61,736 nucleotides of DNA, taken from the IMG/VR virus record IMGVR_UViG_2974716774_000001, positions 1 to 61,736 of that record. One strand, 5' to 3'. Shown piece after piece: positions 3,704 to 55,450 of this stretch. Origin of the DNA: Jacunavirus JC01 (lineage: Duplodnaviria > Heunggongvirae > Uroviricota > Caudoviricetes > Casjensviridae). Under the pieces are notes generated by a model. That model was not told the origin of the DNA and ran no database searches. It saw only the letters and a program-made list of their open reading frames with translations. Position 1 is the stretch's first letter. The number at the start of each line of letters is the position of its first letter. The translations under genes were made by a program, and so were the position numbers.

Positions 3704-4081
3704 ATGTCTGGTTCTATTGAGCTGTTGATTGAAGCCCTGAATAACTGCACCGCTGCCCTGCAGGCCCACACCGCTGCAAACGGCAACGCCGCTGGCGCCG
3801 CAGCTGATAAATCTGCTTCTGGTGCTAAGAAAAACAACGCCAAACCGGCTAAACCGGAAACCCCGAAAGCAACGAAAACCAAGCAGGAAACCACTGAAGC
3901 GATCGTTGCGCTGAAAGACACCGTTGGCAAAGACGCTGCGGTCGCTCTTCTGAAGAAACACGGCTTTGCTAAGCTCGCGGACATCGCCGAAGATAAATTC
4001 GACGTGCTGTTCGAAGAAGCTACCGCACAGCTGGAAGCGCATAATGCCGCAGGCGACACTCCTGCTGACGACGACTTCTGA
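3704..4081 (+). CDS. Hypothetical Ala/Lys-rich protein with acidic C-terminal tail
   Basis: 125-aa ORF with RBS GGAG upstream; ends ...TPADDDF, reminiscent of SSB-type acidic tails. Confidence 0.55.
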   Translation: MSGSIELLIEALNNCTAALQAHTAANGNAAGAAADKSASGAKKNNAKPAKPETPKATKTKQETTEAIVALKDTVGKDAAVALLKKHGFAKLADIAEDKFDVLFEEATAQLEAHNAAGDTPADDDF

Positions 4082-4120: not shown

Positions 4121-5461
4121 ATGCCCGCCAGATCCTTTCTTCTCCGCCTCATGGATGAATTTGGAAACGGCGGGCATTCTATTTTTGCGCCGTCCGGTTC
4201 GGCGATGTGGCTTTACTGTAGCGGAAGCCTTATCGCGAACCTGCTGGAAGATGACGACGGCTCGTACGAGGCTGCCGAAGGAACGGTGGCGCACGAGCTG
4301 GGAGAGCAGTGGCTGAAGTCTGGCGTTAAGCCCGACCATCGGCTCGGTGAGGTCGTCAGCGTCACGGAAGGCGAAGGCAAGCCGGTTTATGAAGTGCCTA
4401 TCGACGAAGTGATGCTGGACTTCGTTGAAGAGTACGTGCTGTGGTGTGAATGGCTCGAAGGCGACCACTTCGTCGAGCAGCGAGTCTATTTTACCGAGCT
4501 GATGCCGTACGCCAATCAGGATGAGATTGAGGAAGACCCGCTGGCGGTGCCGGTGGATTTCGTACCTCAGGGCGGTACCGCCGACCACGTTTGCTGCATG
4601 ATGGGTCTGATGATTATCACGGACTTCAAATACGGCAAGGGGATCTGGGTCGACGCGGTGGGCAACACCCAGGCGATGCTGTATGCGCTGGGATTCTTTT
4701 ACAAATGGGACTGGAAATACCATTTCGAAAAGATAGTTATCCGCATCGCTCAGCCGCGCCTGCATAACTGGGGCGAGTGGGAAATAACGCGCGACGAGCT
4801 ACTGGATTTTGCCGAGTTCGTCCGCGAGCGCGCTGCGAAGGCGTGGCAGATTAACGCGCCGCGCCGGGTGAGTGCCAAAGGCTGTCAGTGGTGCAAAGCG
4901 AAAGACAGTTGCGTCGCGAACGCCGTGGCGCTGGAAAACCTCGTCTACCGCGATTTTGATTTGCTCGCGGAAGAACTGACGGAGCACCATATGTCGATGA
5001 TGAAAGAGAAGCTGCGCGAAGAGTACAAGATGCACCTCGCCAAAGTGGCCGTGCTGGACGAGGCGGACATGGTGCGCATTCTGGAATTTCGTCGGCCCGT
5101 TGAGCAGTGGTTTAAAGCCATCAACGCAAAACTGGAGGCCGCGGCTAACGCTGGCCACACCATTCCCGGCAAGAAGCTGGTGGATGGAAAATCAAATCGC
5201 GTTTTCCGTAACCAGAAAGCGGCGATTGATCATCTGCTGTTCCTCGGCCTTGAGATGGAGGATATCGTCACCGAAGAGGTTATCTCTCCGGCTCAGGCAG
5301 AGGAAAAGTTAAGGAAGGTGGCAAAGCTGGACAGGAAGAGCATCGACGTTGCGCTTCGCAACTACGTGTTCAAGCCTCCCGGAAAACCCACACTTGTCAA
5401 TGACGACGACCCAAGAGTCGCCCTGGGAGACCACGACGAAGGTGCCTGGGACGATGAGTAA
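4121..5461 (+). CDS. DUF2800-like PD-(D/E)XK nuclease (Cas4/RecB-like fold with C-terminal Cys cluster)
   Basis: 446-aa ORF; N-terminal HSIFAPSGSAMWLYCSGS pattern and C-terminal CQWCKAKDSC cluster; typical partner of DUF2815 and PolA in phage replication modules. Confidence 0.6.
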   Translation: MPARSFLLRLMDEFGNGGHSIFAPSGSAMWLYCSGSLIANLLEDDDGSYEAAEGTVAHELGEQWLKSGVKPDHRLGEVVSVTEGEGKPVYEVPIDEVMLDFVEEYVLWCEWLEGDHFVEQRVYFTELMPYANQDEIEEDPLAVPVDFVPQGGTADHVCCMMGLMIITDFKYGKGIWVDAVGNTQAMLYALGFFYKWDWKYHFEKIVIRIAQPRLHNWGEWEITRDELLDFAEFVRERAAKAWQINAPRRVSAKGCQWCKAKDSCVANAVALENLVYRDFDLLAEELTEHHMSMMKEKLREEYKMHLAKVAVLDEADMVRILEFRRPVEQWFKAINAKLEAAANAGHTIPGKKLVDGKSNRVFRNQKAAIDHLLFLGLEMEDIVTEEVISPAQAEEKLRKVAKLDRKSIDVALRNYVFKPPGKPTLVNDDDPRVALGDHDEGAWDDE

Positions 5462-5510: not shown

Positions 5511-6155
5511 ATGGCCAAAATGGCTGAGAAACAAAAACTGGTAGTGGCTAAGCGTATGCAGGGCGGTGTCGTTTACACGAACGGCATGATTCGTCTGGAT
5601 GAAGTTATTCTGAGCTATCCGCACCTCGATGAGATGTGGGCAGGCGAAACCGGCGATAAACCGGCGTACAGTGCTGAGTTCCTTGCGCCGAAAGAGACGC
5701 ATCGGGAAATCATCAAAGAGGCGCTCGATATCTGCCGCAAGCTGGCGTCAGAAAAGAAACTTAACATCGCTGGCGACAAGATGTTCGTGAAAGACGGCGA
5801 TAAGTGGTTCGAGCACAAGCCGGAGTGCGCAGGCCGCTTTAAGTTTACTGCCCGCGAACAGACGCACCCTACCGTTCGTCGTGCGGACGGCAGTAAGATG
5901 CACCCTAAGGATGACAAGGCAGAAATCAAAGAGATGTTCTACGGCGGCTGCATTGTATCCGCTCTTATCAACCCCTGGGTGCAGAACAACTCCTACGGCA
6001 AACGTATCAACGCCAACCTGAAAGCTGTGCGCTTCGTGCGTGACGGTGAGCCGTTTGGTGAAGGTCGTGTCGACGACGATGAGGCATGGGATGATGACGT
6101 AGGCGGCGGTGACGACTGGGATTCCGGCGACGCTGGCAGCGATGATGATTTTTAA
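5511..6155 (+). CDS. DUF2815-like single-stranded DNA-binding protein
   Basis: 214-aa ORF with RBS AAAGGA; acidic C-terminus ...DWDSGDAGSDDDF; conserved position between DUF2800 nuclease and PolA. Confidence 0.55.
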   Translation: MAKMAEKQKLVVAKRMQGGVVYTNGMIRLDEVILSYPHLDEMWAGETGDKPAYSAEFLAPKETHREIIKEALDICRKLASEKKLNIAGDKMFVKDGDKWFEHKPECAGRFKFTAREQTHPTVRRADGSKMHPKDDKAEIKEMFYGGCIVSALINPWVQNNSYGKRINANLKAVRFVRDGEPFGEGRVDDDEAWDDDVGGGDDWDSGDAGSDDDF

Positions 6156-6214: not shown

Positions 6215-8269
6215 ATGCCTGACCACATTCGCCTTGACTATGAATCCCGTAGCCGAACCGACCTGCCCACTGCAGGCCTGGCCCGGTATGTGCGAGACCC
6301 GACCACGCAGGTGCTGATGGCTTCCTGGGAAGAGAACGATTCAGGGAAAATCGACTTCTGGGATATCCGCCAGGGCCGACGGCCGCCAAAACCGCTGATT
6401 GATGCTATCCGCGATCCGAAAGTTATCAAATGGGCCTTCAACGCGCAGTTTGAGCGCAACATGACCGAGCATGTCCTCGGCATAAAAACCCCGTATTCTT
6501 CCTGGCGCTGTACGATGGTGCTGGCGTACATGCTGGGCTTCTCTGGCGACCTCGCAATGATTGGCAGACTGGTAGGCCTGCCCGAAGAGATGCTGAAGAG
6601 CAAAGAGGGTTCGAAGCTCATCTCGCGTTTCTCAAAGCCGCGTAAACCAACAAAGGCCGACCCACGCGAATGGCACGACTGGACGACGCACCCGGAAGAG
6701 TTTGACAGTTTTGGCGGCTATAACCGACAGGACGTGCGCGCGGAGTCCGCTATCGGCCGTCGGCTCGGCAATACGGAGAAATACCCCATTCTGGAAAGCG
6801 AGTGGGATCTCTATGCGCTAGACCAGTACATCAACGACACCGGAGTCACCGTCAACGCCGAATTTGCGCGCATGGCACTTGAGGTGGCCGAGCGCAGGAA
6901 GCCGATCCTTTTTGAAGAGATGCGCGACATTACCGGCCTCAGTAACCCCAACTCCGTGTCTCAGCTGCTGCCCTGGCTGGGAGAACGCGGCTACCACTTC
7001 AGCGACATGCAGTCGGAAACAGTAAAGCAGGCGCTGCGCGAAGCCGATGAGCTGGGTCTTCCGGAAGAAGTTCGTCGCGTGCTGAAGCTGCGCCAGAACG
7101 TCAGCAAGTCGTCGCTCGGCAAATACAACACGATGCTGAGCACCATGACCGAGGAAGATAACAAATACCGCTACTCGCTGCAGATGTGGGGCGCCAGCCG
7201 CACCGGCCGCTGGGCAGGACGCGGCGTTCAGCTGCACAATTTGCCCCGCACGCCAAAAATGCTGGAAGACGAGTACATGCAGGACGTCGCCATTGAGATG
7301 GTGAAAAAAGGCGACATGGAAGGACTGGAGCTGCTGGTCGGCGAGCCGATGGACGCGCTGGTCGGTCTGATCCGCTCTGCCTTCATCCCCACCCCAGGCT
7401 ACCGTTTTGTGGTATCAGACCTGGCATCCATCGAATCGGTCGTTATCGGCTGGCTGACTGACTGCAAATGGTTCATGGACACGCTGCACGCCGGGCGAGA
7501 CCTGTACCGGGCGTTCGCCGCAGAGTGGCTGAAGATACCGTACGAAGAGACAAAACCGCACCGCAGCAAAGCCAAACCGGCAACCCTCGGCGCGGGCTAT
7601 GGTCTCGGCGGCGGCAAATTCGACCCGATTAAGAAAAAGAAAAACGGCCTGTGGGCATACGGCGAAGGTATGGGCGTATTCATGACCCAGCAGGAAGCGC
7701 ACGCGTCCGTGAATGCGTTCCGCGAGCTTTGCCCTGAAATCGTTTCGTACTGGCGCCAGCTGGAAGATGCAGCCAAGACGTGCATCAAAGAGCGCCGGTC
7801 GGTCAAGTGCGGCAAGGTTACTTTCGAGTTTCGTAAGCCGTTCATGGCCATCGTTCTTCCGTCCGGGCGCCGCCTGTATTACTTCAAGCCTTTCCTGAAA
7901 AAGAAAACCGTCGAGTACACGGACAAACACACCGGCGAGATCAAGACGTTCGAAAGCCAGGAGATTCTCTACTACGGGAAAGACGGCCCGAAATGGGGTC
8001 TCCAGCACACCTACGGCGGCAAGCTGGTGGAAAACATCGTACAGGCTATCGCGCGTGACGTGCTGGCCGGTGGGCTGAAACGCGCGCACGAAGACGGCTT
8101 CGGCATACCGTTCCACGTCCACGATGAAATCATCACGGAAGTGCCGGTCGACGACGAAGAGCGAAATCTCGATCGTCTGCGCCAGCACATGACGGCGCCG
8201 ATACCGTGGGCACCAGGTCTACCCCTCGGCGCAGCTGGGTGGGAAGGCTTCCACTACAGGAAAGACTGA
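6215..8269 (+). CDS. DNA polymerase, family A (Pol I-like)
   Basis: 684-aa ORF; motif A-like VVSDLASIESVV, motif B-like RSKAKPATLGAGYGLGG, motif C-like HVHDEIITEV; RBS GGAG upstream. Confidence 0.85.
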   Translation: MPDHIRLDYESRSRTDLPTAGLARYVRDPTTQVLMASWEENDSGKIDFWDIRQGRRPPKPLIDAIRDPKVIKWAFNAQFERNMTEHVLGIKTPYSSWRCTMVLAYMLGFSGDLAMIGRLVGLPEEMLKSKEGSKLISRFSKPRKPTKADPREWHDWTTHPEEFDSFGGYNRQDVRAESAIGRRLGNTEKYPILESEWDLYALDQYINDTGVTVNAEFARMALEVAERRKPILFEEMRDITGLSNPNSVSQLLPWLGERGYHFSDMQSETVKQALREADELGLPEEVRRVLKLRQNVSKSSLGKYNTMLSTMTEEDNKYRYSLQMWGASRTGRWAGRGVQLHNLPRTPKMLEDEYMQDVAIEMVKKGDMEGLELLVGEPMDALVGLIRSAFIPTPGYRFVVSDLASIESVVIGWLTDCKWFMDTLHAGRDLYRAFAAEWLKIPYEETKPHRSKAKPATLGAGYGLGGGKFDPIKKKKNGLWAYGEGMGVFMTQQEAHASVNAFRELCPEIVSYWRQLEDAAKTCIKERRSVKCGKVTFEFRKPFMAIVLPSGRRLYYFKPFLKKKTVEYTDKHTGEIKTFESQEILYYGKDGPKWGLQHTYGGKLVENIVQAIARDVLAGGLKRAHEDGFGIPFHVHDEIITEVPVDDEERNLDRLRQHMTAPIPWAPGLPLGAAGWEGFHYRKD

Positions 8270-8556
8270 TGGCCGCCAAAGTCGTCAAAGAGTCGAAAGT
8301 CGAGAAGGAGATCCGGCAGTACGCTCTCGCGACCGGCTGGTGGGTGGCGAAGTTCGTCGCCCCCGGCAAGCGCGGCGTACCGGATCGCCTGTTCATCAAA
8401 AACGGCTGGCACCTTTTCATGGAGATAAAAAGGCCCGGAGAGGTACCAACCGAACAGCAGTTACTTCGCCACCAGGAGATGCGCAAATATGGGGCTATTG
8501 TCGTATGGGTCGACAGCGTTGAAGAAGCTAAAAGCTGGCTTGATTTCATATGCTGA
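8269..8556 (+). CDS. VRR-NUC domain nuclease
   Basis: About 95 aa from the ATG overlapping the PolA stop (ATGA); residues PDRLFI...EIKRPGE fit the VRR-NUC pattern. Confidence 0.55.
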   Translation: MAAKVVKESKVEKEIRQYALATGWWVAKFVAPGKRGVPDRLFIKNGWHLFMEIKRPGEVPTEQQLLRHQEMRKYGAIVVWVDSVEEAKSWLDFIC

Positions 8557-10072
8557 ATACCGACACCGGAAATTTAAGCTGGTCGCCTATAAGCGGATGC
8601 AGCAGCACAAATACCAGCGAGAGGCCTATGACTTCATCATGGCCACGCCTTTCTGCGGGCTCTTCATCGACATGGGTCTCGGCAAAACAATCACCTCCCT
8701 GACCGCCGCGGTTGACCTGCTGATGAATTTCGAGGTCAGCCGCGTCTTGATCATCGCGCCCCGGCGCGTTGCTCGCAAAACATGGCCGGACGAGATTCTG
8801 GCGTGGGAACACACCTGCATGTTTGAGTTTCAGGTTATTGACGGCTCGGTTAAGCAGCGTCTGGAGGCCATCAAAAACCCGTGCAGCATTCACATTGTCA
8901 GCCGTGATAACGTCGAGTGGCTAACCGAGCAGTGGCGCCAGCGATGGCCATACGACATGGTTATCATTGACGAGAGCAGCTCCTTCAAAGACCACACTAC
9001 CAAACGCTTTAAAGCAATGCGCCGCGTTCGTCCGTACATCAAACGCCTCGTTGAACTGACGGCCACACCGGCGGCAGAGACCTACGAGCATCTTTTTGCC
9101 CAGGTCTATCTGCTGGACAGCGGCGCGCGCTTCGGCAAAAGCATCACGGTCTACCGCGAGCAGTATTTCAACTACAACCGCTGGACGTTCAAATACAAAC
9201 TGCGGGAGGGCTCGGAGCAGCAGATACTGGAGAAAATCGCCGACATCTGCCTGGTCATGCGCGCCGAGGACTATCTCGATCTGAAGCAGCCGGTGTACAT
9301 CAACCGCAAGGTGAAACTCGACCGCAAGCAGTCGAAGCTGTACGCCGAGATGGCTGAGAATTTCATCGTTGAGGTTTATGGCGCCGATGAGCAGCCGGTG
9401 ATGGTCGAGGCGGAGACAGCGGCGTCGCTTTCGGCCAAACTCCTGCAGATGTCCTCCGGCGTGCTATACAACACCTATCTGGACGGCATTAACGAGAAGA
9501 CCGGAAAGCCTATCCAGAAGCGCGACATCTACGAGATCCACACGGCAAAACTTGACATGCTGGAGGAAATCATAGAAGAGTGCGCTGGAGAGAACATTCT
9601 CGTGGCGTACCACTTCCAGTCGTCGCTTGACCGCCTGAAGAAGCGCTTTCCTAAAGCGGTTCAGATGGACAAAGAAGGCGAATGTGTCACGAAGTGGAAC
9701 CAGGGCAAGATAAGCCTGCTGCTGGCGCACCCGCAATCAGCCGGGCATGGTCTGAACCTGCAGAAAGGCGGCCACATCATTGTTTACTACGACATCCCGC
9801 ACTCGCTGGAGCTGTACATGCAGTTTAACGGCAGACTGGCGCGGCAGGGTCAGACGCACGTCGTCAAGATTATCCACCTCATCGCTGAAGGCGAGAAGCA
9901 GGATAAGCGCGGCGAGTGGGTGCCCATGCCGACGGTCGACGTCGGTGTCGTCGAATCCCTCCAGGCCAAAAAGGACGGCCAGGAATGGTTACTGGAAGAA
10001 TTGCTGCGGATACGCCGCCGACGCGCCAACGCGCGCAGGAAGGCACTGGCCGCAGCCGTAGAGGACTTCTGA
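8489..10072 (+). CDS. SNF2/DEAD-like helicase
   Basis: ATP-binding GLGKT motif, DESS (DEAH-like) box, C-terminal helicase region; start ambiguous (8489 overlaps the VRR-NUC gene, alternative ATG at 8597). Confidence 0.7.
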   Translation: MGLLSYGSTALKKLKAGLISYAEYRHRKFKLVAYKRMQQHKYQREAYDFIMATPFCGLFIDMGLGKTITSLTAAVDLLMNFEVSRVLIIAPRRVARKTWPDEILAWEHTCMFEFQVIDGSVKQRLEAIKNPCSIHIVSRDNVEWLTEQWRQRWPYDMVIIDESSSFKDHTTKRFKAMRRVRPYIKRLVELTATPAAETYEHLFAQVYLLDSGARFGKSITVYREQYFNYNRWTFKYKLREGSEQQILEKIADICLVMRAEDYLDLKQPVYINRKVKLDRKQSKLYAEMAENFIVEVYGADEQPVMVEAETAASLSAKLLQMSSGVLYNTYLDGINEKTGKPIQKRDIYEIHTAKLDMLEEIIEECAGENILVAYHFQSSLDRLKKRFPKAVQMDKEGECVTKWNQGKISLLLAHPQSAGHGLNLQKGGHIIVYYDIPHSLELYMQFNGRLARQGQTHVVKIIHLIAEGEKQDKRGEWVPMPTVDVGVVESLQAKKDGQEWLLEELLRIRRRRANARRKALAAAVEDF

Positions 10073-10073
10073 G

Positions 10074-10667
10074 ATGGTGGCGAAAAACAAAAATGCACCG
10101 ATGGCGCTAAGGGCGCGCCGGTCTAACCAGAACGACTCTGAAACCGAGTCGATGATATTCCAGGGCGCGAACATCACGCAGCTCGGGAAACTGTTTCGCA
10201 TGGATCGCCGCGACATCACGCCGAAAATAATGGACGTGGCGCCGTGTGGCGAGCGCGGCGGATACCCCATCTACTACGTCCATGAAGTCGCGCCGCACCT
10301 GGTGAAGCCGATATACGACGTCGAGACCTACCTCAAGCGAATGCACCCGAACGATCTGCCAAAACATCTGACGAAAGAGTTTTGGGGCGGGATGCGCGCC
10401 AAGCAGGAGTACGACAAGGAAGCGGGCAACCTGTGGGAGACGGATAAAGTCATCGCGATAATGAGCGAAGTTTTCAAAGTCCTGCGAATGTCTATCCTGC
10501 TGGCCGGTGACACCGTGGAGCGCGAAATCGCTTTCACCGCTGAACAACGCGAGAAGCTTCGCGTTATTCTCGACGGCGCGCTGCAGGAATGCGCTAACGG
10601 CCTGGTAAACCGCTTCGGCCCTGAGGCTGAGAAAGAGCAGGAGCAGGACGATGACGACGAAATATAA
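10074..10667 (+). CDS. Terminase small subunit (Nu1-like, putative)
   Basis: 197-aa ORF immediately upstream of and overlapping the large terminase; N-terminal region resembles the lambda Nu1 winged-HTH; acidic C-terminus QDDDDEI. Confidence 0.5.
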   Translation: MVAKNKNAPMALRARRSNQNDSETESMIFQGANITQLGKLFRMDRRDITPKIMDVAPCGERGGYPIYYVHEVAPHLVKPIYDVETYLKRMHPNDLPKHLTKEFWGGMRAKQEYDKEAGNLWETDKVIAIMSEVFKVLRMSILLAGDTVEREIAFTAEQREKLRVILDGALQECANGLVNRFGPEAEKEQEQDDDDEI

Positions 10668-45313: not shown

Positions 45314-46021
45314 TTACAGATCCTCCCACCTTCTGAACCACGCTTCCCGATCGAAATGCTTCTTCGCCGCCAGTGGCATCCCGATCTCCATCAGCTCTTC
45401 CCGGCGGACGTACTCTTCTGGCGCGCGGCTGGTGCTGAGGCCATCGAAGATAATCAGCGACGCGCCGAAGCCTGCGGTAGAGGCATCAGAAGACATGGCG
45501 TCTGGTCTGTACCAGCGAGGCAGGTCGAAAGCGATACGCCCTTTGATGTGGATAATCTTCGAGCATTCGCCGTCCGGCCACCAGCTCTCCGACGTCGCCG
45601 ACTTCACCAGCCAGAAAGATGGCGTGCCTTTCCGGTGCTCTTCGTACGCCTTCTTCATGATGTGCTGCATACCGGTGACGTGGGGCGCCCGACGGCCGCG
45701 CCCGGCGCGCTTGATGCTGTAAGGTGGATTGCCGAAGCATTTGACCGGCTCAGCGTCATCCGCACCCGCCAGCTCGGCACCTTTGCGCAGCGCTGCGCTC
45801 CAGTCCTGCGTCAGCGCGTTATCATCTGCCGTGAAGAACACCGGGCACTTCGCATTGGGGCCGTCACTGAACAGGTCGACGACGAACGGGCCATACAGCT
45901 CATCCAGCGCCAGGTAGAGCCAGTCCGGCGTACACCACTGGTCGCCTATCTCGTTCGGCAGGTGGGTCTGCTGGGCCTGCAGTTGCTGCAGAGCACGCAC
46001 GTACTCATTGCTCATCGGCAT
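45314..46021 (-). CDS. DNA N6-adenine methyltransferase (phage Dam-like)
   Basis: 235-aa ORF; NPPY catalytic motif (CFGNPPYS) and W-C-T-P-D-W segment. Confidence 0.65.
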   Translation of the reverse strand: MPMSNEYVRALQQLQAQQTHLPNEIGDQWCTPDWLYLALDELYGPFVVDLFSDGPNAKCPVFFTADDNALTQDWSAALRKGAELAGADDAEPVKCFGNPPYSIKRAGRGRRAPHVTGMQHIMKKAYEEHRKGTPSFWLVKSATSESWWPDGECSKIIHIKGRIAFDLPRWYRPDAMSSDASTAGFGASLIIFDGLSTSRAPEEYVRREELMEIGMPLAAKKHFDREAWFRRWEDL

Positions 46022-46890: not shown

Positions 46891-47931
46891 CTATAAATCG
46901 CTTCGTTCAGTCTCATAAGCTGCGATAACAGTTGCGCTGACGAACCGGGCAGCGATTTGAGGTACGATGGCGTTACCATATCCTTTGAGTAGCCCCACGC
47001 GGCCGGGTACCCCATGAGCCAGCGGGAATGTTCCGGGTTCAACGGGCCTGAAGCATCCATCCCGGCAGAAGAGCCAGTCAGCACTTCCCCAGTCTCCGTG
47101 ATCCGCACTGGGCAATCCGGCATAACCAGCTGCGCGGCAACGTCCAGTCTGTCCACTGACAGTTTGCCGTTGCGTATCCGTCCTCCCTGATAGCCGCCCT
47201 TGTGATCCGTCGCGCTCGATGTTGGCCATATCGCCAGCTTCGCCTCCCCGCCCAGCTTCAGGATTTTCCGGCCCGCCGATGTGCTGTAGTCGCTGCCCTT
47301 CGCATCGTTCGCTATCGCCGTATGCCAGCTGGTCATCTTCGCCTGCTGCGCCAGCGAGCTGCCCGTCATGTTGGCCGTGATGCCCGACCAACCGCGCCGC
47401 CCGTCCGAGTGACTCGGTGTCGTCCAGGCGAAAGGCCGCGAAAAATAATCGGTCGCGTTTGTGCGGAGCGCCGACGCCTGCAGCTGGCAGTACATGCGCT
47501 GCGCAGGCGTAACCTTCCTCTTCCAGCTCAATGAGTAAAGCGTCAAGCCAGTGGTCTTTTTTAACTGCCGCTGCAACCTGCTCGCCGAAGAGCATTGGAG
47601 GACGACACTCTGCGATGAGATCGAGAAGGGCCGGAGCCAAGTGACGTGAATCTCTTGCCCCGAGGCCTGCTCCAGCCACGCTGAAAGGCTGGCACGGAGG
47701 ACTACCCGTCCACAGCGGGAGATCGTCCGGGAGCCCGGCGAGTCGCAGGGCAAGCGGCCATCCGGCGATGCCTGCGAAGAAGTGGCACTGGGTGAAGCCA
47801 CGGAGGTCTTGTGGTCTGACATCTAAAATGCTCCGCGTGTCTACGATGCCCATCGGGATAAGCCCGGCGTCAATGAGAAGCCGCAGCCTTTCAGCTGCGA
47901 CCGGATCGTACTCGTTATAGTAATTCATCAC
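46891..47931 (-). CDS. DNA cytosine-5 methyltransferase, reading frame apparently interrupted by two frameshifts
   Basis: Frame A (46891-47931) carries motif I (FFAGIAGW), motif IV (GSPPCQPFSVAG), motif VIII (HKRDRLFF) and C-terminal motif X (GNAIVPQIAARF); the target-recognition region and motif IX (RWLMGYP) are in the overlapping +1 frame (ORF 46848-47822). Confidence 0.55.
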   Translation of the reverse strand: MMNYYNEYDPVAAERLRLLIDAGLIPMGIVDTRSILDVRPQDLRGFTQCHFFAGIAGWPLALRLAGLPDDLPLWTGSPPCQPFSVAGAGLGARDSRHLAPALLDLIAECRPPMLFGEQVAAAVKKDHWLDALLIELEEEGYACAAHVLPAAGVGAPHKRDRLFFAAFRLDDTESLGRAARLVGHHGQHDGQLAGAAGEDDQLAYGDSERCEGQRLQHIGGPENPEAGRGGEAGDMANIERDGSQGRLSGRTDTQRQTVSGQTGRCRAAGYAGLPSADHGDWGSADWLFCRDGCFRPVEPGTFPLAHGVPGRVGLLKGYGNAIVPQIAARFVSATVIAAYETERSDL

Positions 47932-48712: not shown

Positions 48713-49216
48713 TTAAAATCCTACGCCGTCAGCTTTACGTTTAGGTGGGATTCTGCGTGGCTCAGGCTCCTGAATCTCCGGCTGAACCTCTTCGCGGAAC
48801 TCATTGGCGGTTTTGATGACTTCGCGCATACCCTCTTCGCTCAGCCTGCCGTAGTCCTTCTCATTGACGTGGATGCCAATGGAGTTAGTGACTGCCCGAT
48901 TGACGATGCTGGTCACGAGCGTGGTTCCCGGGAACACGCCACCCGCAGAGAAGCCTGCCTGGTAGAGCGCATCGGCGGCGTCGCGGATATAATCACGGCA
49001 CGCGGCGCCGGACTCCGGTTTAACCAGCGCCAGCAGAATGGCGGCATAACGTTCGTCCACGACGGACACGTCGTCGCTGCACAGGATTTCCAGCTTGTCT
49101 TTCTGGCTGCAGCGCGCGACAACCTGATCGCCGTTGACCAGCTCGACGGCCAGAATGCGCGGGAACTTCGGAGCATCGGTAACGACCAGCTGGCCGGTTT
49201 GAATTAATTTAGTCAT
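48713..49216 (-). CDS. Hypothetical protein
   Basis: 167-aa ORF, 1-nt overlap with the upstream gene. Confidence 0.45.
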   Translation of the reverse strand: MTKLIQTGQLVVTDAPKFPRILAVELVNGDQVVARCSQKDKLEILCSDDVSVVDERYAAILLALVKPESGAACRDYIRDAADALYQAGFSAGGVFPGTTLVTSIVNRAVTNSIGIHVNEKDYGRLSEEGMREVIKTANEFREEVQPEIQEPEPRRIPPKRKADGVGF

Positions 49217-49965
49217 CAGATTGATTCCTCATCGGTTATTAACTGGAAGGCATCACCGCGCACAGACCACGGCTGCCAGACATCCACTACAAGACACCCG
49301 CCGAAGCCAGCGTCAAAACAATTCTGCACCTGCACCCAGAAGCGTACGCGGGAGCTGCCAGCGCAGCCCTGCAGCGGCCAGTCCCAGCTGTGCGGGGCGA
49401 TGACCGGGAAACGCAGGATGGGTGAGGGCACAGAGTAAGGGTTTGCCGCGCCCATGCGGATCAGCGCGCGCTTCAGGTCTGCCCGGCGCTGCCACATATC
49501 CACGGTGTCGGCACCGCGCAGGAAGTGGTCGTACGGCATGTGGGCGATAATCATGGCGGCCACGTCTTCCGCCGGTGCTGGCCATTCCGGGTCAAAGCAC
49601 CAGTCGGCCATCAGCGAGCGCAGCTTATCGGCACGGCCGCCGTTGTCTTTGTCGTACAGCATGGCGTCGAACGCGTGCCACGGGAAATTAACCTGCACGC
49701 CATTGCGGGTGAATCGCGGATTGGGCTCGCTGTAGAGCGACGAGTAGAGTTTCCTGAACTCATCTTCCAGCGCCAGCGAAAAGCCGTTCAGCGACGTTCC
49801 TGTGGCGTCTCCGGCGGTGTCGTAGACATGGATTTCAGTGCCGTTGGTGACAACGATGACTCGCTGCCCGTCAGGCCAGGGGAAAGGATAGAGGGTAACT
49901 TTGTCCGGGTCGCGCTGGTCAAACGGGCGGATCCGCGGAACGGGTTTGCTCAGTTTCATAGTCAT
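49216..49965 (-). CDS. Hypothetical protein
   Basis: 249-aa ORF directly downstream of a family promoter. Confidence 0.5.
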   Translation of the reverse strand: MTMKLSKPVPRIRPFDQRDPDKVTLYPFPWPDGQRVIVVTNGTEIHVYDTAGDATGTSLNGFSLALEDEFRKLYSSLYSEPNPRFTRNGVQVNFPWHAFDAMLYDKDNGGRADKLRSLMADWCFDPEWPAPAEDVAAMIIAHMPYDHFLRGADTVDMWQRRADLKRALIRMGAANPYSVPSPILRFPVIAPHSWDWPLQGCAGSSRVRFWVQVQNCFDAGFGGCLVVDVWQPWSVRGDAFQLITDEESI

Positions 49966-50385: not shown

Positions 50386-50603
50386 GATACCCTCTTGATC
50401 CGCGTGCCGGTCTTGCCGTAAATCTCGTCGCGCTCGACGAACCGGAAAGCCAGCCTCAGGTTGAGTTTATAGCCCAGCTTGCGCAGGTACGTGCAGTGCT
50501 TGGGCAGGACGTTCTCCAGGAAGAACGAGTCGCCGATGGCCAGTCGCGCCAGCAGCTCCTCGTGCTTCTGCCTGGTCTCAGGGGAGATGTCAGATATCGT
50601 CAT
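50382..50603 (-). CDS. Hypothetical small protein
   Basis: About 73 aa from the ATG at 50603, overlapping the RdgC-like C-terminus by 14 nt. Confidence 0.4.
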   Translation of the reverse strand: MTISDISPETRQKHEELLARLAIGDSFFLENVLPKHCTYLRKLGYKLNLRLAFRFVERDEIYGKTGTRIKRVS

Positions 50604-51816
50604 CGTCGTCTTCGCTCTCTTCTTCGCCGAGATCCCACTCGTCATCCACCATGTCCTCTTCGCTTTCCGGCAGCGGCTCGCCGCCTTTCGCCTTAGCCTT
50701 CGATTCTTTGGCCACCGCGATATCGTCGCCGTCCGCGTAGTCCTCCAGCGCCGAGCGGTTAACGGTGACGCCGGTGCGATACATCGCGGTGCTGAAGGCA
50801 ACGATGGCGCGACGCATGACCCACAGCTCGCTCATCCACAGCTGGAAAGCATTGTCACCGCGATCATATTCCTGCCCGAAGTCCACGTCATCGCTCTCGG
50901 CGCTGGTGGAGAACGCTTTTACGTCGCCGTTGTGGTTCATCTTCGCCCAGATGTTCTCCATGCCAGGCAGATTGGACATGAAGCGGAACTCCATTTCCGT
51001 CGGGAAGAAGCCGGACGCCAGCAGATCGCGGTAGCGCGGCTCAGCCAGCTCGCCGTCTTTGACCGAGATGGTCTCTTTCTCATCGTTCACGAGTTTCAGG
51101 TGGCTGCCCAGCAGGAAAAGGTCTGCCACATCGGAGTGACGGAGCAGGATGCTGCGGAAGAAGCGCTGCATGGCGCCCTGGTCGACGTACGCGGGCACCG
51201 TAGGGAGCGAGCTGAACGCCTTGCGGATGAGCGCCGTGACATCTTCTGCTGCCTTCTGGCTGCCGGTGAAGACATACAGGTCAAGCCCGTCGATCATGAC
51301 GTAAATGCGGCTGCGGCGGATGGGCGCGGTGGTCAGCAGCTGCGCCGTCACCTCGTCTTTCAGGATGGCGTAGTCTTTGCGGTTCAGCTCGCGCTCTTCG
51401 CGTGCCTTCATCTCGGCGGCGCGCTCAAACAGCTTGTCGTTGATGGAGCTGGACGGCAGCACGCGCTCGCGCTTCTCGATGCACATTACCAGGGAATTGC
51501 ATTCGTGGATCTCGACGACCAGCGGCTGCACATATTTATCTTCGCCGTCTTCTTTACCCGCGTACATGTCTTCCGGCACCGCGTAGTGCGGAGGTACGAA
51601 GCCCCAGGTGCGCCACTGGCCGTGCGCCGGGTCTTTGGCCGGGTGCTCTTTCAGGCGGTCGTGGATGAGCTGAATGGCGGACTCGTGGTCGATTTCGCCT
51701 TCGTGCAGATCCAGAATGGTCAGCAGCGCCGCCGCCACGTCTTTGCCTTCGCGGACGTTCTCGGCGATCTTATCGAGGTAGTAGTGCTGGAACTTATCGA
51801 AGTGCTTCAGTTTCAT
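50590..51816 (-). CDS. Recombination-associated protein RdgC-like
   Basis: 408-aa ORF; AAEDVTALIRKAFSSLPTVP and NSLVMCIEKRERVLPSS match the RdgC pattern ([37 protein letters not shown]); acidic C-terminal tail EEESEDDDDDI. Confidence 0.6.
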   Translation of the reverse strand: MKLKHFDKFQHYYLDKIAENVREGKDVAAALLTILDLHEGEIDHESAIQLIHDRLKEHPAKDPAHGQWRTWGFVPPHYAVPEDMYAGKEDGEDKYVQPLVVEIHECNSLVMCIEKRERVLPSSSINDKLFERAAEMKAREERELNRKDYAILKDEVTAQLLTTAPIRRSRIYVMIDGLDLYVFTGSQKAAEDVTALIRKAFSSLPTVPAYVDQGAMQRFFRSILLRHSDVADLFLLGSHLKLVNDEKETISVKDGELAEPRYRDLLASGFFPTEMEFRFMSNLPGMENIWAKMNHNGDVKAFSTSAESDDVDFGQEYDRGDNAFQLWMSELWVMRRAIVAFSTAMYRTGVTVNRSALEDYADGDDIAVAKESKAKAKGGEPLPESEEDMVDDEWDLGEEESEDDDDDI

Positions 51817-52157
51817 TGGAATGTCTCCGGTGTCACGTTAATGAAGGTTTTCTCCTGCGCGCCCGGCACAACCGCCTTGCGGACATGCGTCAGCGCTTCG
51901 GTCATGCGCTCCCGTGCGGCCTGCAGGCTGGCGCACTGGCGGGAATACTGCTTATCGAGGTCATTAAACAGCGCCTCGTCTTCGGGGTTCGTCGACTCGG
52001 CCAGCTCATTCAGAAGCACCGGGTAGAAGGCGTGCAGCTCTTCCTCGATCTGCGTGAGCCACAGCTCCATGTCGGTGTCCATCCGGGTCAGGCGGTCATA
52101 GTGGGCCGCCATCGTTCTGCGGTGCTGCTTGCCCGCAACGTTAGGGTTATTCGACAT
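51813..52157 (-). CDS. Hypothetical protein
   Basis: 114-aa ORF, 4-nt overlap with the RdgC-like start. Confidence 0.4.
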   Translation of the reverse strand: MSNNPNVAGKQHRRTMAAHYDRLTRMDTDMELWLTQIEEELHAFYPVLLNELAESTNPEDEALFNDLDKQYSRQCASLQAARERMTEALTHVRKAVVPGAQEKTFINVTPETFQ

Positions 52158-52407
52158 CTTTGCTCTCCGCCTGTTTCAGTCCGTACGCCAGGTCGTTAAT
52201 AACCTGCGCCGCTGACATGCCCACGTAGCCGTGCTTGTTTGAGGCCTCCATCGCTTCTTCGTACCACTCTTTGTAGTCTTCGAGGTAGTCAATGCGAGAG
52301 AGGATCTTGCGAACCTGCCCGATATCTACCGATACGCCATCGAGACCTTGCTGCGATGCGATGCGCAAGGCCTGCAGAATCTCTTCAATGCTCAAGTTAT
52401 TCGACAT
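52147..52407 (-). CDS. Hypothetical protein
   Basis: 86-aa ORF. Confidence 0.4.
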   Translation of the reverse strand: MSNNLSIEEILQALRIASQQGLDGVSVDIGQVRKILSRIDYLEDYKEWYEEAMEASNKHGYVGMSAAQVINDLAYGLKQAESKDVE

Positions 52408-52630
52408 TACCTGGCTCCCCCAGCACTTCCAGAATCTCGTGTTGCGTTACCGCCCACTGCACTTCCGGGCTCTCAGCGTGGCCGCTGATATGCACGAGAT
52501 GGTGGACGAGGTAGACCCGCATGTCCGGGCGAGACATCGGGTGATGCGATTTAACAAGACCGCGATAGACGCGGTTGTTATAGCTGTCGCGAAAACGAAT
52601 TTCGCAGCCGATCAGATTGCAGTTCCGCAT
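52397..52630 (-). CDS. Hypothetical protein
   Basis: 77-aa ORF. Confidence 0.35.
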   Translation of the reverse strand: MRNCNLIGCEIRFRDSYNNRVYRGLVKSHHPMSRPDMRVYLVHHLVHISGHAESPEVQWAVTQHEILEVLGEPGNVE

Positions 52631-52652
52631 GGTTATCTCCTGCGGTAAGAGG

Positions 52653-53009
52653 TTATTGTCCGTACAGCCAGCCTTTGTGTTGCTGAAGCAGCTCAGTCGG
52701 GTAGTGCGTGCAGCACCAGCGCAGCAGCATGTACGCGTAGGCGCGCTGCTGGGCGCACTGCTCGTGCCCTACGGCTTTGGCCGGGGTGTAGCGGCCCTTC
52801 TCAAACACGACGTCGCCGTCGCGCTCGGCGATAACGCCTGTCCAGCTCAGGCGGATCTTGAGCCCGTGGCGGCGCTCCAGATCGTTAAACAGCGGTGCGA
52901 TGGCCACGCTTACCGGGGCCACCAGCGTGTTGATGGCCATTGCCGTTTTCGTTGGCACGGCGCCGAGCTTCCACGCCTCGTCTGACACGTTAACCTTGCT
53001 CATCTTCAT
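52653..53009 (-). CDS. Hypothetical protein
   Basis: About 118 aa from the ATG at 53009 preceded by RBS AAGGGG. Confidence 0.4.
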   Translation of the reverse strand: MKMSKVNVSDEAWKLGAVPTKTAMAINTLVAPVSVAIAPLFNDLERRHGLKIRLSWTGVIAERDGDVVFEKGRYTPAKAVGHEQCAQQRAYAYMLLRWCCTHYPTELLQQHKGWLYGQ

Positions 53010-53376
53010 CCCCTTTGGTCGGTAGTTCCACGCTGTAAAGCAGGCGGCTAAGGTCAGCCCGAGCATCCTTCACGCCGCGCACGTATTCTTTCAGGTACTG
53101 CTCGCCGTTCTTCTCGGCCTGCCCGTTGTACTGCGCCATCAGCTGCTCTTTGATGCTGGTGGACAGTGCCGTGTTCGCGCCGCCGCTGCGCACATGGCTG
53201 TCAAACACGGCATAGCGGCCCTGCAGGTAGGCGTTGATGGCCATCTGGCGGCGGAAGCGCGTGTGGTAGCGCCAGGTGTTGAACGCCATGTACACCAGCG
53301 GCGCGCAGATAAGCAGATTGCCGAACCACGCGATCGCGGTCAGCTCCGCCCGGTGCTGCAATATCCAGTCAAGCAT
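52990..53376 (-). CDS. Hypothetical membrane protein
   Basis: 128-aa ORF; N-terminal hydrophobic helix LTAIAWFGNLLICAPLVYMAF. Confidence 0.4.
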   Translation of the reverse strand: MLDWILQHRAELTAIAWFGNLLICAPLVYMAFNTWRYHTRFRRQMAINAYLQGRYAVFDSHVRSGGANTALSTSIKEQLMAQYNGQAEKNGEQYLKEYVRGVKDARADLSRLLYSVELPTKGDEDEQG

Positions 53377-54034
53377 CGTTGTCCTCCACCAGCTCGTAGA
53401 CGAGGAAGCCCGGAACTTCGGTGATGCGCATGGGCCGCGATTCGACCAGCGTTTTCAGCACCTCAGCCGTGTTGATGCGCAGCTCGGTCATGCCGTTGCC
53501 GATCATGATTTGACGAACCGTGGCTTCAAAGAAGGCGTTGAACTCTTCTCCGTGGCGCTCTTCCATCTTGTCCATCAGCGCACGAAGCAGTTCATTTTCG
53601 TCGAGCAGATCCCACTGCTTCTGGAGGCGCTCAACCTCGGCCTGCGCCTTCTCGCGGGTGTCGATGACGTCGCGACCGGCCAGCGATTCAAACTGAGCGG
53701 CGCTGGTGTCGGTTTCAGCCGCCTGCACAGGGGAATACTTAACCTCTTTTAAATCCTCCGCCATCTTGTCATAAGGCGCAGCAAATGCAGCGTACGAACC
53801 CGGCTGGCGGCCCTGCGGCGCCACGGTGGAGTTATAGGCATAGCCTGCCACCTTCGTGCCGTTAAGCAGCACGTTCAGGCGCGCCGCCACCGCGTCATAG
53901 AGCGACGGGTTGAGGTCTTTAATCCGCACTGCCACACCGCCGTTAAGCTCGGCGATAATGCTTTTGATCGGCGATACACCGTCAAATTTGTTAGCCACAG
54001 CCACGGCCAGGTTCATCAGTTCTTTCTGTTCCAT
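53369..54034 (-). CDS. Hypothetical protein
   Basis: About 221 aa from the ATG at 54034 preceded by RBS AAGGA. Confidence 0.45.
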   Translation of the reverse strand: MEQKELMNLAVAVANKFDGVSPIKSIIAELNGGVAVRIKDLNPSLYDAVAARLNVLLNGTKVAGYAYNSTVAPQGRQPGSYAAFAAPYDKMAEDLKEVKYSPVQAAETDTSAAQFESLAGRDVIDTREKAQAEVERLQKQWDLLDENELLRALMDKMEERHGEEFNAFFEATVRQIMIGNGMTELRINTAEVLKTLVESRPMRITEVPGFLVYELVEDNDA

Positions 54035-54044
54035 GTTGGTGTCC

Positions 54045-54581
54045 TTAAATCTTGTCACGGAGCCACTGGATCCCAGCGGACATGTATTTGACCTGATGAA
54101 TCGCATCATCGAGGGCGTTGTGGAATGTGCCTTCTCGTTCGAACTTCAACGGGTTTATGCCTGCCAGATCTACCGCCGTACGAACGTCGCGGATATTCCA
54201 GAATTTCCACGGTGTCGGAAGATGCAGCTGAGCGAACCACGCTTCCAGAATAGTGATGTCGAACACGGATCCGTTGCCCCAAACGAGGTCATTACCGTCC
54301 AGCCACTGAATGAATTTAAGGGCACTCTCGCGCGGGTTGTCGCTGCCATTAAACGCGTCCTGCTTAGCGGCGTCTGACTGTTTCTGCCACCATTCCAGGG
54401 TGTCGGGGTCAACGTGCCCGAAGGCGCGGGCATTTTCGTAGCCCATGCAGCAGTAGAACGTCTCACCGATCTCGCCCGTGTAGCGGTCGAAAGCCACGGC
54501 GCCGATGGACAGCACCGAACAGCCCGGGCTACGGCCGAGCGTCTCAATGTCGATCATTACGTCACGATGTTTCTTTTTCAC
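54045..54581 (-). CDS. DEDDh-type 3'-5' exonuclease (DnaQ-like)
   Basis: 178-aa ORF; Exo I IDIETLG, Exo III HNALDDA. Confidence 0.6.
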   Translation of the reverse strand: MKKKHRDVMIDIETLGRSPGCSVLSIGAVAFDRYTGEIGETFYCCMGYENARAFGHVDPDTLEWWQKQSDAAKQDAFNGSDNPRESALKFIQWLDGNDLVWGNGSVFDITILEAWFAQLHLPTPWKFWNIRDVRTAVDLAGINPLKFEREGTFHNALDDAIHQVKYMSAGIQWLRDKI

Positions 54582-55450
54582 CAGTCTTCTCCGAAAGGAT
54601 TACACTCTTCAGTGCAGTTACCCGGCGCATCTTCATACAACGGCCGGTAGTCATTATCGACTTCACTAAACGTCGCTATCAGGTCAGCGGCGCTACGGAA
54701 GCCCCGGTACATCTTGCGTGGCCCTTCGACCACATTTGGCCCGACGTCACCACAGCTTTTCTCCATTTCCGCCGCGGCGTGGAAGTATTCCGGATTGTCC
54801 TGGAAGGCCCGGAGCAGCTTCGCGTCAGACTTTTTAAAGCAGAAAACGCAGTTTCCGCAGTGCTCAGGTATCCCCAGGTCAAACGGCATAAACTCCCACC
54901 AGTCGAGCACATCTTCTTTCGTGGTTGGCCACCAGTGCGCCAGCGGGTACACCTTGTTTTGCCGGGTCTGGCGGTCAGGCTTTTTAGGCTTGATGCGCCG
55001 TGGTTCGTCAATGCGCATACCGACGGCTGTCAGGTATTCCCCTTTGGCCCAGCCCAGCGCCTCCCACAGATACCCGTGGATCGGTATCTCTTTCAGCTCC
55101 CGCGTGCAGTGCAGGTAGTTGGTGTTCGGTAGCCCATACTTCCGGCACATCTCGATGTAGGGCTCACCTTTGCGGCTGGCGGTCTCGTACGTCACTACCT
55201 TCCAGCCGGTGCGCACGCCTTTCTGCTCGTGCGTTATCGCCTCCACCCACACGGTATTGAAGCCCAGCTGAACGTCGCAGTTATGCACGAAGTCCAGCGT
55301 GGCCGGGTGCTCAAAGCCAGTGTTGGCGAAAAGCACTTTAATGTCGTACTCGTCTGACTTCTCCTGCAGCAGCCGGTACGTCATGTGCGCCGAGGTTCGG
55401 CCACCGGACATGGCGGCCACCAGCCGTGGTTTCATTTGTGATGCCCGCAC
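54578..55450 (-). CDS. PP-loop ATP pyrophosphatase superfamily protein (PAPS-reductase-like)
   Basis: 290-aa ORF; PP-loop-like AAMSGGRTSA near the N-terminus; cysteine pairs HCGNCVFC and NCTEEC. Confidence 0.55.
   Translation of the reverse strand: MRASQMKPRLVAAMSGGRTSAHMTYRLLQEKSDEYDIKVLFANTGFEHPATLDFVHNCDVQLGFNTVWVEAITHEQKGVRTGWKVVTYETASRKGEPYIEMCRKYGLPNTNYLHCTRELKEIPIHGYLWEALGWAKGEYLTAVGMRIDEPRRIKPKKPDRQTRQNKVYPLAHWWPTTKEDVLDWWEFMPFDLGIPEHCGNCVFCFKKSDAKLLRAFQDNPEYFHAAAEMEKSCGDVGPNVVEGPRKMYRGFRSAADLIATFSEVDNDYRPLYEDAPGNCTEECNPFGEDW

Follow-up and report, generated by a model that had tools for sequence, protein, structure and literature searches.

The window considered here, that is, the whole 61,736-nucleotide stretch of Jacunavirus JC01 DNA (IMG/VR record IMGVR_UViG_2974716774_000001), appears to be a complete Chi-like (Casjensviridae) genome that runs from near the cos end (positions 1-61736) and is collinear, gene for gene, with the genomes of phages Enc34, Chi, and SLP-22. 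[quoted passage not shown] These are followed by a minus-strand early block that includes two methyltransferases, an RdgC-like gene, a Rv2179c-like 3'-5' exonuclease, and a gene resembling 3'-phosphoadenosine-5'-phosphosulfate (PAPS) reductase. The RdgC-like gene (50590..51816, minus strand) is the subject of this work. It encodes a divergent, phage-type RdgC family member of a Chi-like virulent siphophage, and the protein ends in a disordered acidic tail with a hydrophobic last residue, a type of tip that is also found on the SSB and on other proteins of the same phage.

The coding sequence spans 408 codons from an ATG to a TGA stop at 50590-50592, exactly the coordinates given in an earlier, sequence-only reading of this DNA, and is supported by the ORF list, codon usage, and matches in Pfam, PHROG, and the Protein Data Bank (PDB). 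With codon statistics trained on the window's large structural genes, the ORF scores 0.66 log2-units per codon, versus 0.008 for a 515-aa ORF lying antisense to it (50479..52026, plus strand), and its G+C fraction at third codon positions is 0.81, versus 0.68. The antisense frame would be favored by a naive longest-ORF caller but was ruled out as a gene by these codon statistics and by the lack of any Pfam family match. Exceeding the real gene in length, it is a typical high-GC shadow ORF, of the kind by which longest-ORF gene callers are misled. The translation start context (51813..51828, minus strand) consists of a GGAG Shine-Dalgarno sequence at 51825-51828, 8 nt upstream of the ATG, and an ATGA overlap between the start codon and the stop of an upstream 114-aa gene; the gene is therefore translationally coupled in a minus-strand operon. 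Scans for promoters and terminators around the gene gave no signal above shuffle expectation.

Membership in the RdgC family, which the sequence-only reading had based on conserved segments, is borne out by several searches with scores far above chance. The alignment to the Pfam RdgC profile PF04381 is significant (92 bits against a cut-off of 25, E=5.6e-26) and pairs aa 107-282 with profile positions 60-237 of 298, while PHROG 724 is matched over nearly its full length (aa 1-340 to positions 1-294 of 312, E=3.6e-45). Sequence searches also retrieve the RdgC proteins of known crystal structure from E. coli (PDB 2owl, E=2.4e-13) and P. aeruginosa (2owy, E=3e-12). The conserved RdgC segments are EKRERVLPSS (aa 114-123), LKDEV..LL..AP (aa 152-165), and SQKAAE..ALIRKAF (aa 186-201). 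The fold agrees with this assignment. An AlphaFold2 model of the 408-aa protein, resting on 35 aligned sequences, has a predicted local distance difference test score (pLDDT) of 85 and a predicted template modelling score (pTM) of 0.83, and is confident for aa 1-378. When the model was used as a Foldseek query, 2owy_A was matched at E=1.6e-21 and 2owl at E~1e-20, with target-normalised template modelling scores of 0.81-0.84 (0.84 for 2owy_A), and RdgC structures were the only matches at E<=0.001. The RdgC-fold core defined in this way occupies aa 1-347 (50776..51816, minus strand).

The description of the gene as a phage-encoded RdgC homolog thus holds for family and predicted fold, but does not extend to equivalence with the bacterial protein. 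All six NCBIfam equivalog models for bacterial RdgC (NF001460-NF001465) score far below their curated cut-offs, the best reaching 96.6 bits against 227 and the others 45-89 bits against 324-501, and the protein is therefore no equivalog of bacterial RdgC. It has in common with the proteins of E. coli (b0393, 2OWL) and P. aeruginosa (PA3263, 2OWY) the Pfam family, the predicted monomer fold, the EK(R/E)E(R/K)(V/I)LP, LKDEV, and SxKxAE segments, and a two-helix finger of equal length. It differs from them in an overall identity of only about 24%, in two insertions, in replaced gate and horseshoe residues, in a half-basic fingertip, and in a 61-aa C-terminal extension with acidic tail and hydrophobic terminus that bacterial RdgC lacks.

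The extra length relative to E. coli RdgC had been ascribed to an N-terminal extension. Additional length is indeed present, but not at the N-terminus, as the N-terminus of the E. coli protein already has its aligned counterpart in the first strand (MKLKHFDKFQHYYLDK); the added residues lie instead in two internal insertions of the center domain (aa 17-42 and 84-99) and in the C-terminal extension (aa 348-408). Insertion 1 (51691..51768, minus strand), recognized from alignment gaps, is helical (predicted helices 15-22 and 29-38) and is absent from E. coli RdgC but present in Chi gp58. Insertion 2 (51520..51567, minus strand), recognized in the same way, is a β-hairpin (predicted strands 84-89 and 92-96) found neither in E. 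coli RdgC nor, for the most part, in Chi gp58. The finger, or tip domain (aa 122-161; 51334..51453, minus strand), was located by a phmmer alignment to 2owl and by residue mapping; it consists of two helices, is as long as in E. coli, and has the further conserved basic residues R139 and K147.

The C-terminal extension (50593..50775, minus strand) starts past the end of bacterial RdgC, as seen in the alignment and the AlphaFold2 model, and contains two short helices (354-359 and 363-376) followed by a linker and the tail. The tail itself (aa 379-408, EPLPESEEDMVDDEWDLGEEESEDDDDDI; 50593..50682, minus strand) is predicted to be disordered, with pLDDT <50 throughout. It carries a net charge of -18 and an internal E-W-D motif, and Asp and Glu make up 18 of its 30 residues, versus 16.7% in the core (binomial P=1e-7). 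It closes with DDDDDI-COOH (50593..50610, minus strand), an acidic run plus a terminal hydrophobic residue, and this tip is both kept in the family and common to other proteins of the phage. The poly-acidic C-terminus reported earlier is therefore real (18/30 Asp or Glu, net charge -18) and absent from the canonical bacterial RdgC of about 300 aa. Its description as "not typical" is correct for the bacterial protein but not for the phage type, where the tail defines a large RdgC subfamily.

The evidence for such a subfamily comes from homologs at several distances. The search for relatives yielded 33 homologs of 379-464 aa, mostly on contigs of about 61 kb. All 30 close homologs (30/30; 42-94% identity, again mostly from ~61-kb contigs) end in a tail with a net charge of -14 to -24 and with I or L as the last residue, and in 26 of the 30 an aromatic residue followed by Asp or Glu occurs within the tail. 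An exhaustive phmmer search over 1.84 billion cluster representatives gave 1006 matches at E<=1e-3, and the best 150 were inspected for tips, defined as at least three Asp or Glu in the five residues before a terminal I, L, V, or F. A tip was present in 101 of these 150 best representatives and in 47 of the top 50; of the 101 tips, 84 terminate with L, 7 with I, and 5 each with V and F. The untipped representatives cluster at the bacterial-type length of 285-325 aa and stop soon after a ...GG motif. In the tipped ones, a linker that differs greatly in length from protein to protein separates this motif from the tip. Phage-type RdgC thus resembles SSBs in its layout, which comprises a core, a linker of variable length, and, at the end, an acidic tip that is conserved. 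Those tipped representatives that could be placed lie on phage-sized contigs or in Aeromonas phages.

The same layout is seen in the orthologs of the collinear Casjensviridae genomes. Chi gp58, Enc34 ORF60, and SLP-22 gp59 (PHROG 724) occupy the orthologous position, have the same insertion 1, and end, like the present protein, in an acidic tip plus a hydrophobic residue (DDDEV, EDDEV, and DDEWAI, respectively). They differ from it in identity (25-52%), in the terminal residue (V in Chi and Enc34, I here), and in the linker, which is very short in the Chi and Enc34 proteins (355-357 aa in total) and about 45 aa long, with a W-D motif, in the present clade. These orthologs are annotated "exonuclease recombination-associated". 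The "exonuclease" label on phage RdgC homologs (Chi gp58, Enc34 ORF60, SLP22_0059, and the names of PF04381 and PHROG 724) is a legacy name and is unsupported.

The proposition that all phage RdgCs are tailed was considered and ruled out, given the untailed 303-aa RdgC of Vibrio phage X29 and the many phages that carry a bacterial-type RdgC. Untailed genes of this type are in fact common in phages (385 records). They include P1 HrdC and the proteins of P1-like RCS47, Vibrio X29, ICP1, and Pseudomonas YuA-like phages, all of which belong to the RdgC family and are phage-carried, like the present protein. They differ from it in being about 300 aa long and 40-64% identical to E. coli RdgC, in lacking the acidic tail in the case of X29 (which ends ...LGGFDE), and in occurring in temperate or otherwise different phage types. 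Earlier work scored P1 hrdC as non-essential by CRISPR interference.

The RdgC-like protein is not the only tipped protein of its phage. The SSB (5511..6155, plus strand), of the T7-gp2.5/Enc34 type (PF10991), has a translated tail ending ...DDDEAWDDDVGGGDDWDSGDAGSDDDF-COOH, and thus (...SDDDF) the same type of tip. Comparison of C-termini in the window adds the ORF3-like 125-aa protein of unassigned function (3704..4081, plus strand; ...TPADDDF-COOH), TerS (DUF1441; 10074..10667, plus strand; ...EQDDDDEI-COOH), and, with a weaker tip, the SNF2-type helicase (8489..10072, plus strand; ...AAAVEDF-COOH), the latter two identified by Pfam. In Enc34, tips are found on the SSB (...WDEDEV), primase (...FDDEDEV), DUF2800 nuclease (...DEDDDEV), ORF3 (...EEEEV), TerS (...DDDEV), and RdgC-like protein (...EEDDEV). 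The same six proteins are tipped in Chi and all end in V, with ...EDEV on the SSB and ...DDDEV on the RdgC-like protein. SLP-22 has tips on the SSB (...DDDDDI), ORF3 (...EDDI), TerS (...DDDEI), RdgC-like protein (...DEWAI), and helicase (...VEF). The largest set occurs in Aeromonas phage pAEv1812, where nine proteins end ...D[DE]EI or ...DDDI, namely the primase, the protein in the ORF3 position, the nuclease, the SSB (...DDDEI), the helicase, TerS, a 3'-5' exonuclease, the RdgC-like protein (...DDGEI), and a 71-aa RES protein. The last residue of the tip therefore co-varies by lineage, being V in Chi and Enc34, I in pAEv1812, and I or F in the window and SLP-22. TerL and the family-A polymerase (6215..8269, plus strand; ending ...F(Y/H)YRKD) have no tip in any phage compared.

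Beyond the collinear genomes, three unrelated phage contigs reached via tipped RdgC-like proteins show the same arrangement with ...DDEL tips, on 5 of 40 genes in contig L011, 6 of 34 in L013, and 5 of 48 in L014, the RdgC-like gene always being included. The L011 set includes a Rv2179c-like exonuclease, and that of L014 a Dam methylase and a YAcAr protein. Among phage records, moreover, RdgC-like genes and gp2.5-type SSB genes have near-identical host-genus distributions.

Several trivial origins of the tips were considered. Tips occur on 5 of the 66 window proteins, where 0.30 would be expected and the maximum in 2000 composition-preserving shuffles was 3. No tip occurs in the structural module of the window, and the same rule applied to T7 as a control returned 1 of 52 proteins, gp2.5 (...SWDEDDEESEEADEDGDF), with gp4 (...STDWSNDTDF) just below the threshold. 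On these three observations, the idea that phage proteins in general carry such tips was rejected. The contrast between non-structural and structural genes is not significant within one genome (Fisher P=0.15), and for this reason the bias against the structural module rests on its repetition across genomes. Gene conversion was excluded as the cause of identical tips, since both synonymous and stop codons differ between tips within a genome, which also indicates selection at the protein level. Nor do the acidic C-termini arise because the Shine-Dalgarno sequence of a downstream gene is embedded in them: GGAG, GAGG, or AGGA is found in only 10 of 33 tips, and the tip codons comprise 89 for Asp and 48 for Glu, which counts against such an origin, as does the 204-nt gap that follows the RdgC-like ORF.

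Some observations on individual tips are worth recording alongside these results. The ORF3 protein (phrog_7721, no Pfam family; 3704-4081, plus strand) lies between the primase operon and the DUF2800 nuclease, is tipped in every lineage examined (...ADDDF, ...EDDI, ...EEEEV, ...EEDDV, and ...NDDDI), and is a candidate new member of a DNA-transaction network. In the window and SLP-22, the DUF2800 nuclease (4121-5461, plus strand; ...EGAWDDE) and the Prim-Pol/D5-type primase (549-3182, minus strand; ...EVADTWA) still have an acidic or aromatic C-terminus, although the hydrophobic last residue seen in the Chi, Enc34, and Aeromonas orthologs has been lost. The tip on TerS (...DDDDEI in the window, ...DDDEV in Chi and Enc34, and also found in SLP-22 and pAEv1812) hints at a link between packaging and replication or recombination, or at a receptor other than the polymerase. 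A 249-aa protein encoded two genes downstream of the RdgC-like gene (49216-49965, minus strand; phrog_6886) ends ...TDEESI, and its orthologs end ...EGEVEI, ...EEDVEI, and ...NEEDLI, always with I and without following the V/I switch of the lineages. Lastly, the annotated SSB of Vibrio phage X29 (L008 38194-38694) has the C-terminus ...PPMDFDDD, which lacks the hydrophobic last residues usual in bacterial-type SSB tips, and its annotation may be truncated or affected by a frameshift.

The closest experimental precedent for tails of this kind is phage T7, whose polymerase gp5 has no such tail but offers basic patches that are bound, in competition, by the acidic tails of gp2.5 and gp4; the gp2.5 tail also competes with single-stranded DNA for the protein's own binding cleft. 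A second precedent lies within the family, as the structure of the Enc34 SSB (ORF6), a protein of the T7-gp2.5 type whose acidic tail is disordered, has been characterized. In its crystal, a neighboring molecule accommodates the tail in its DNA-binding groove, with 842 A2 buried, and deletion of the tail unmasks double-stranded DNA binding (PMC5686142). The T7 tails resemble that of the phage RdgC in their disorder and acidity, their aromatic-acidic motif, and their terminal hydrophobic residue. T7 and the Chi-like phages are also alike in having more than one protein with the same tip and a polymerase without it, the polymerase being the receptor in T7. The two differ in that tails occur on only two T7 proteins but on five to nine in Chi-like phages, including the RdgC-like protein, TerS, and exonucleases, and in that the terminal residue is Phe in T7 and mostly aliphatic in Chi-like tips.

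Considering these precedents, we lean towards a reading, to which we give somewhat better than even chances, in which an RdgC core would be joined to an SSB-type docking or autoinhibitory tail whose receptor is shared with the other tipped proteins. Like bacterial RdgC, the core would use a basic surface for non-specific DNA binding. Roughly half of the pore residues that were mapped are kept, and the clade conserves more than 20 basic positions. The tail would work like that of an SSB, docking the protein on a receptor in common with the SSB, primase, helicase, exonucleases, and TerS. This receptor would most likely be encoded by the phage. It could be, on the model of T7, a basic patch of the DNA polymerase, which has no tail itself, or else the groove in which the SSB binds DNA; a phage-encoded receptor is favored because the last residue switches coordinately by lineage, even between the Salmonella phages Chi (V) and SLP-22 (I). 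The polymerase is a candidate receptor in that its Lys or Arg residues at aa 541, 552, 553, 558, and 564, in a segment aligned with the front basic patch of T7 gp5, are kept in at least four of five phages, a weak piece of evidence. Its match in the PDB is a distant family-A one (Pol theta region), from which a T7-like thioredoxin-binding domain cannot be assessed. Autoinhibition would probably come on top of this, with tail and DNA competing for the basic surface of the protein itself. As a net effect, a DNA-coating or DNA-encircling protein would be brought to the replication and recombination intermediates of the phage. There it might hold back RecA-type loading on SSB-covered DNA as well as strand exchange, to the advantage of the phage's DUF2800 nuclease and gp2.5-type annealing, a step for which E. 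coli RdgC is the sole basis of extrapolation. Taken as a whole, the tail sequences suggest integration into a phage network of replication, recombination, and packaging rather than the modulation of host RecA put forward in the sequence-only reading, a role that extrapolates from E. coli RdgC and may still apply.

A bolder form of this proposal is conceivable, although we doubt it. Here, in Chi-like phages and in other phages with tailed RdgC-like proteins, a genome-wide C-terminal "address tag", made of an aromatic-acidic motif, an acidic run, and a lineage-specific terminal hydrophobic residue, would plug five to nine DNA-transaction proteins (SSB, RdgC-like protein, primase, helicase, nucleases, TerS, and Dam) into a single receptor pocket, as an expanded and inverted version of the bacterial SSB hub. 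The RdgC-like ring might then be a tethered, DNA-encircling accessory of the replisome, for example clamp-like or protecting forks or ends, rather than a free-standing RecA antagonist.

A number of findings weigh against the docking-tail reading. Tips on TerS and the Dam methylase fit poorly with a purely polymerase-centered model. Membership of the tipped set is also variable, since in the window the primase and the DUF2800 exonuclease lack the terminal hydrophobic residue and the Rv2179c-like exonuclease lacks a tip altogether. Furthermore, a tolerant host pocket may accept I, L, and V alike, given how similar these residues are. Other points concern the core, for which the roles of the finger and of the gate, horseshoe, and fingertip residues have been worked out in E. 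coli (PMC2965237); the mappings that follow rest on an alignment of about 25% identity, least reliable in the base domain. The gate residues R118/F120 are not conserved, being replaced by T163/P165, with P165 invariant in the clade. The horseshoe residues Q212/E218/H222/K227, in a weakly aligned region, are likewise not conserved and correspond to G255/R261/L265/F270. The basic fingertip R97/K98/K100/K101, which E. coli RdgC needs for loading on circular DNA (PMC2965237), corresponds to R142/E143/N145/R146, with two of four residues basic. In P. aeruginosa RdgC, mutation of the pore residues R4, K70, R81, R122, K146, R198, R208, and R252 lowers binding of double-stranded DNA (PMC1885664). About four of these eight are retained, as K115, R167, and, in adjacent columns, K188 and K300. 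D7, N126, and S251 are non-basic at mapped pore positions, and pore position 243 is V in the present protein and K or R in 22 of 31 clade members. Because the E. coli dimer-interface residues are not conserved, formation of the ring-shaped RdgC homodimer, with its hole of about 30 A, is unproven. An AlphaFold2 prediction on a tandem duplicate of the protein also left the tails disordered and undocked (pLDDT 66.8, pTM 0.53), with unreliable placement of the copies.

The docking-tail reading has to be set against simpler ones. The phage protein could simply have the role of E. coli RdgC, as a DNA coat that blocks strand exchange by host RecA as well as SOS induction, with the tail an incidental, low-complexity appendage. 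Clear RdgC homology and fold speak for such a role, as does the abundance in phages of the untailed bacterial type (the 385 records above), yet the protein is no bacterial equivalog, its interface and fingertip residues have diverged, and an incidental tail would hardly be kept, together with its terminal hydrophobic residue, across very divergent relatives while co-varying with the tips of unrelated proteins in the genome; we regard this explanation as unlikely. We think it a little less likely still that the tail is purely an intramolecular DNA mimic, tuning affinity or specificity on the protein's own basic surface, with tails gained independently and no shared receptor. That all tipped proteins act on DNA would suit this idea, but self-binding to at least six unrelated folds would account neither for the conservation of a hydrophobic residue at the terminus nor for its coordinated V / I / I-or-F / L switch between lineages, and AlphaFold2 left the tail undocked on the core.

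Mimicry of the host is a different proposition. The host SSB C-terminus reads ...DFDDDIPF, and bacterial SSB tips in general resemble the phage tips, with an acidic run that follows an aromatic residue and leads to a hydrophobic residue bearing the terminal carboxylate. These might accordingly recruit or titrate host SSB partners such as RecO, RecQ, PriA, ExoI, and the chi subunit, and the recurrence of one tip type in phages with unrelated gene sets is what a conserved host receptor would predict. We nevertheless judge this improbable, given that no tip has a Pro-Phe ending, that Chi and SLP-22, both Salmonella phages, consistently use different terminal residues, and that the receptor in T7, the nearest precedent studied by experiment, is encoded by the phage. 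Least credible by far, and ruled out here, are an exonuclease, as the protein is named in many GenBank records and in Pfam and PHROG, and a RexA-like factor for exclusion or for the lysis-lysogeny decision. The former has annotation strings only in its favor, and neither nuclease activity nor a nuclease domain was detected in E. coli RdgC (RdgC structure paper). The latter draws on the fact that lambda RexA is a distant structural relative of RdgC and binds DNA non-specifically (PMC11077077). The biology of RexA, with prophage exclusion, a lysis-lysogeny switch, and RexB as partner, is nonetheless different: the present phage is Chi-like and virulent, the neighbors of its RdgC-like gene encode small unknown proteins with no membrane RexB-like partner among them, and Foldseek at E<=0.001 returned RdgC structures but not RexA.

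A phage RdgC homolog is in itself unremarkable, being a known kind of gene that is already annotated in hundreds of phage genomes. The interest of the tail hinges on the inference of a shared receptor. In the full-text literature searched, whose coverage is incomplete, no description was found of an SSB-like tail on phage-type RdgC, or of one lineage-specific C-terminal tip on many DNA-transaction proteins of one phage, and the sharing of tails is apparently undescribed so far. If the tips do share one receptor, they would provide a simple wiring diagram for a widespread but unstudied phage replisome, composed of a family-A polymerase (PolA), a gp2.5-type SSB, a Prim-Pol/D5 primase, and a DUF2800 nuclease. 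They would also supply a working context for RdgC-like proteins, a family without a clear role even in E. coli, and a sequence rule by which members of the DNA-transaction network could be predicted among uncharacterized phage proteins such as ORF3.

The window as a whole probably represents a new genus-level lineage, its best protein identities being about 50-56%. The RdgC-like protein has its best match in Salmonella phage SLP-22 (51.7%) and is 25% identical to Chi gp58. A megablast search of the locus against 50,697 phage records returned no match, and there is therefore no close sequenced relative in that collection. On the three unrelated contigs (L011 7433-8659, L013 3231-12258, and L014 7972-13867), the tailed RdgC-like gene shares its early block with a Rv2179c-like 3'-5' exonuclease and a DUF7609 protein. 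The window (50590-54581) has the Rv2179c-like exonuclease (54045-54581, minus strand) and no detectable DUF7609. Finally, the two DNA methyltransferase-like genes and the PAPS reductase-like gene (45314-46021, 46891-47931, and 54578-55450, all on the minus strand) may form a DNA-modification module, and the 235-aa protein encoded at 45314-46021 has matches to a methyltransferase PHROG and also to a PAPS-reductase PHROG, in the latter case to its C-terminal part.

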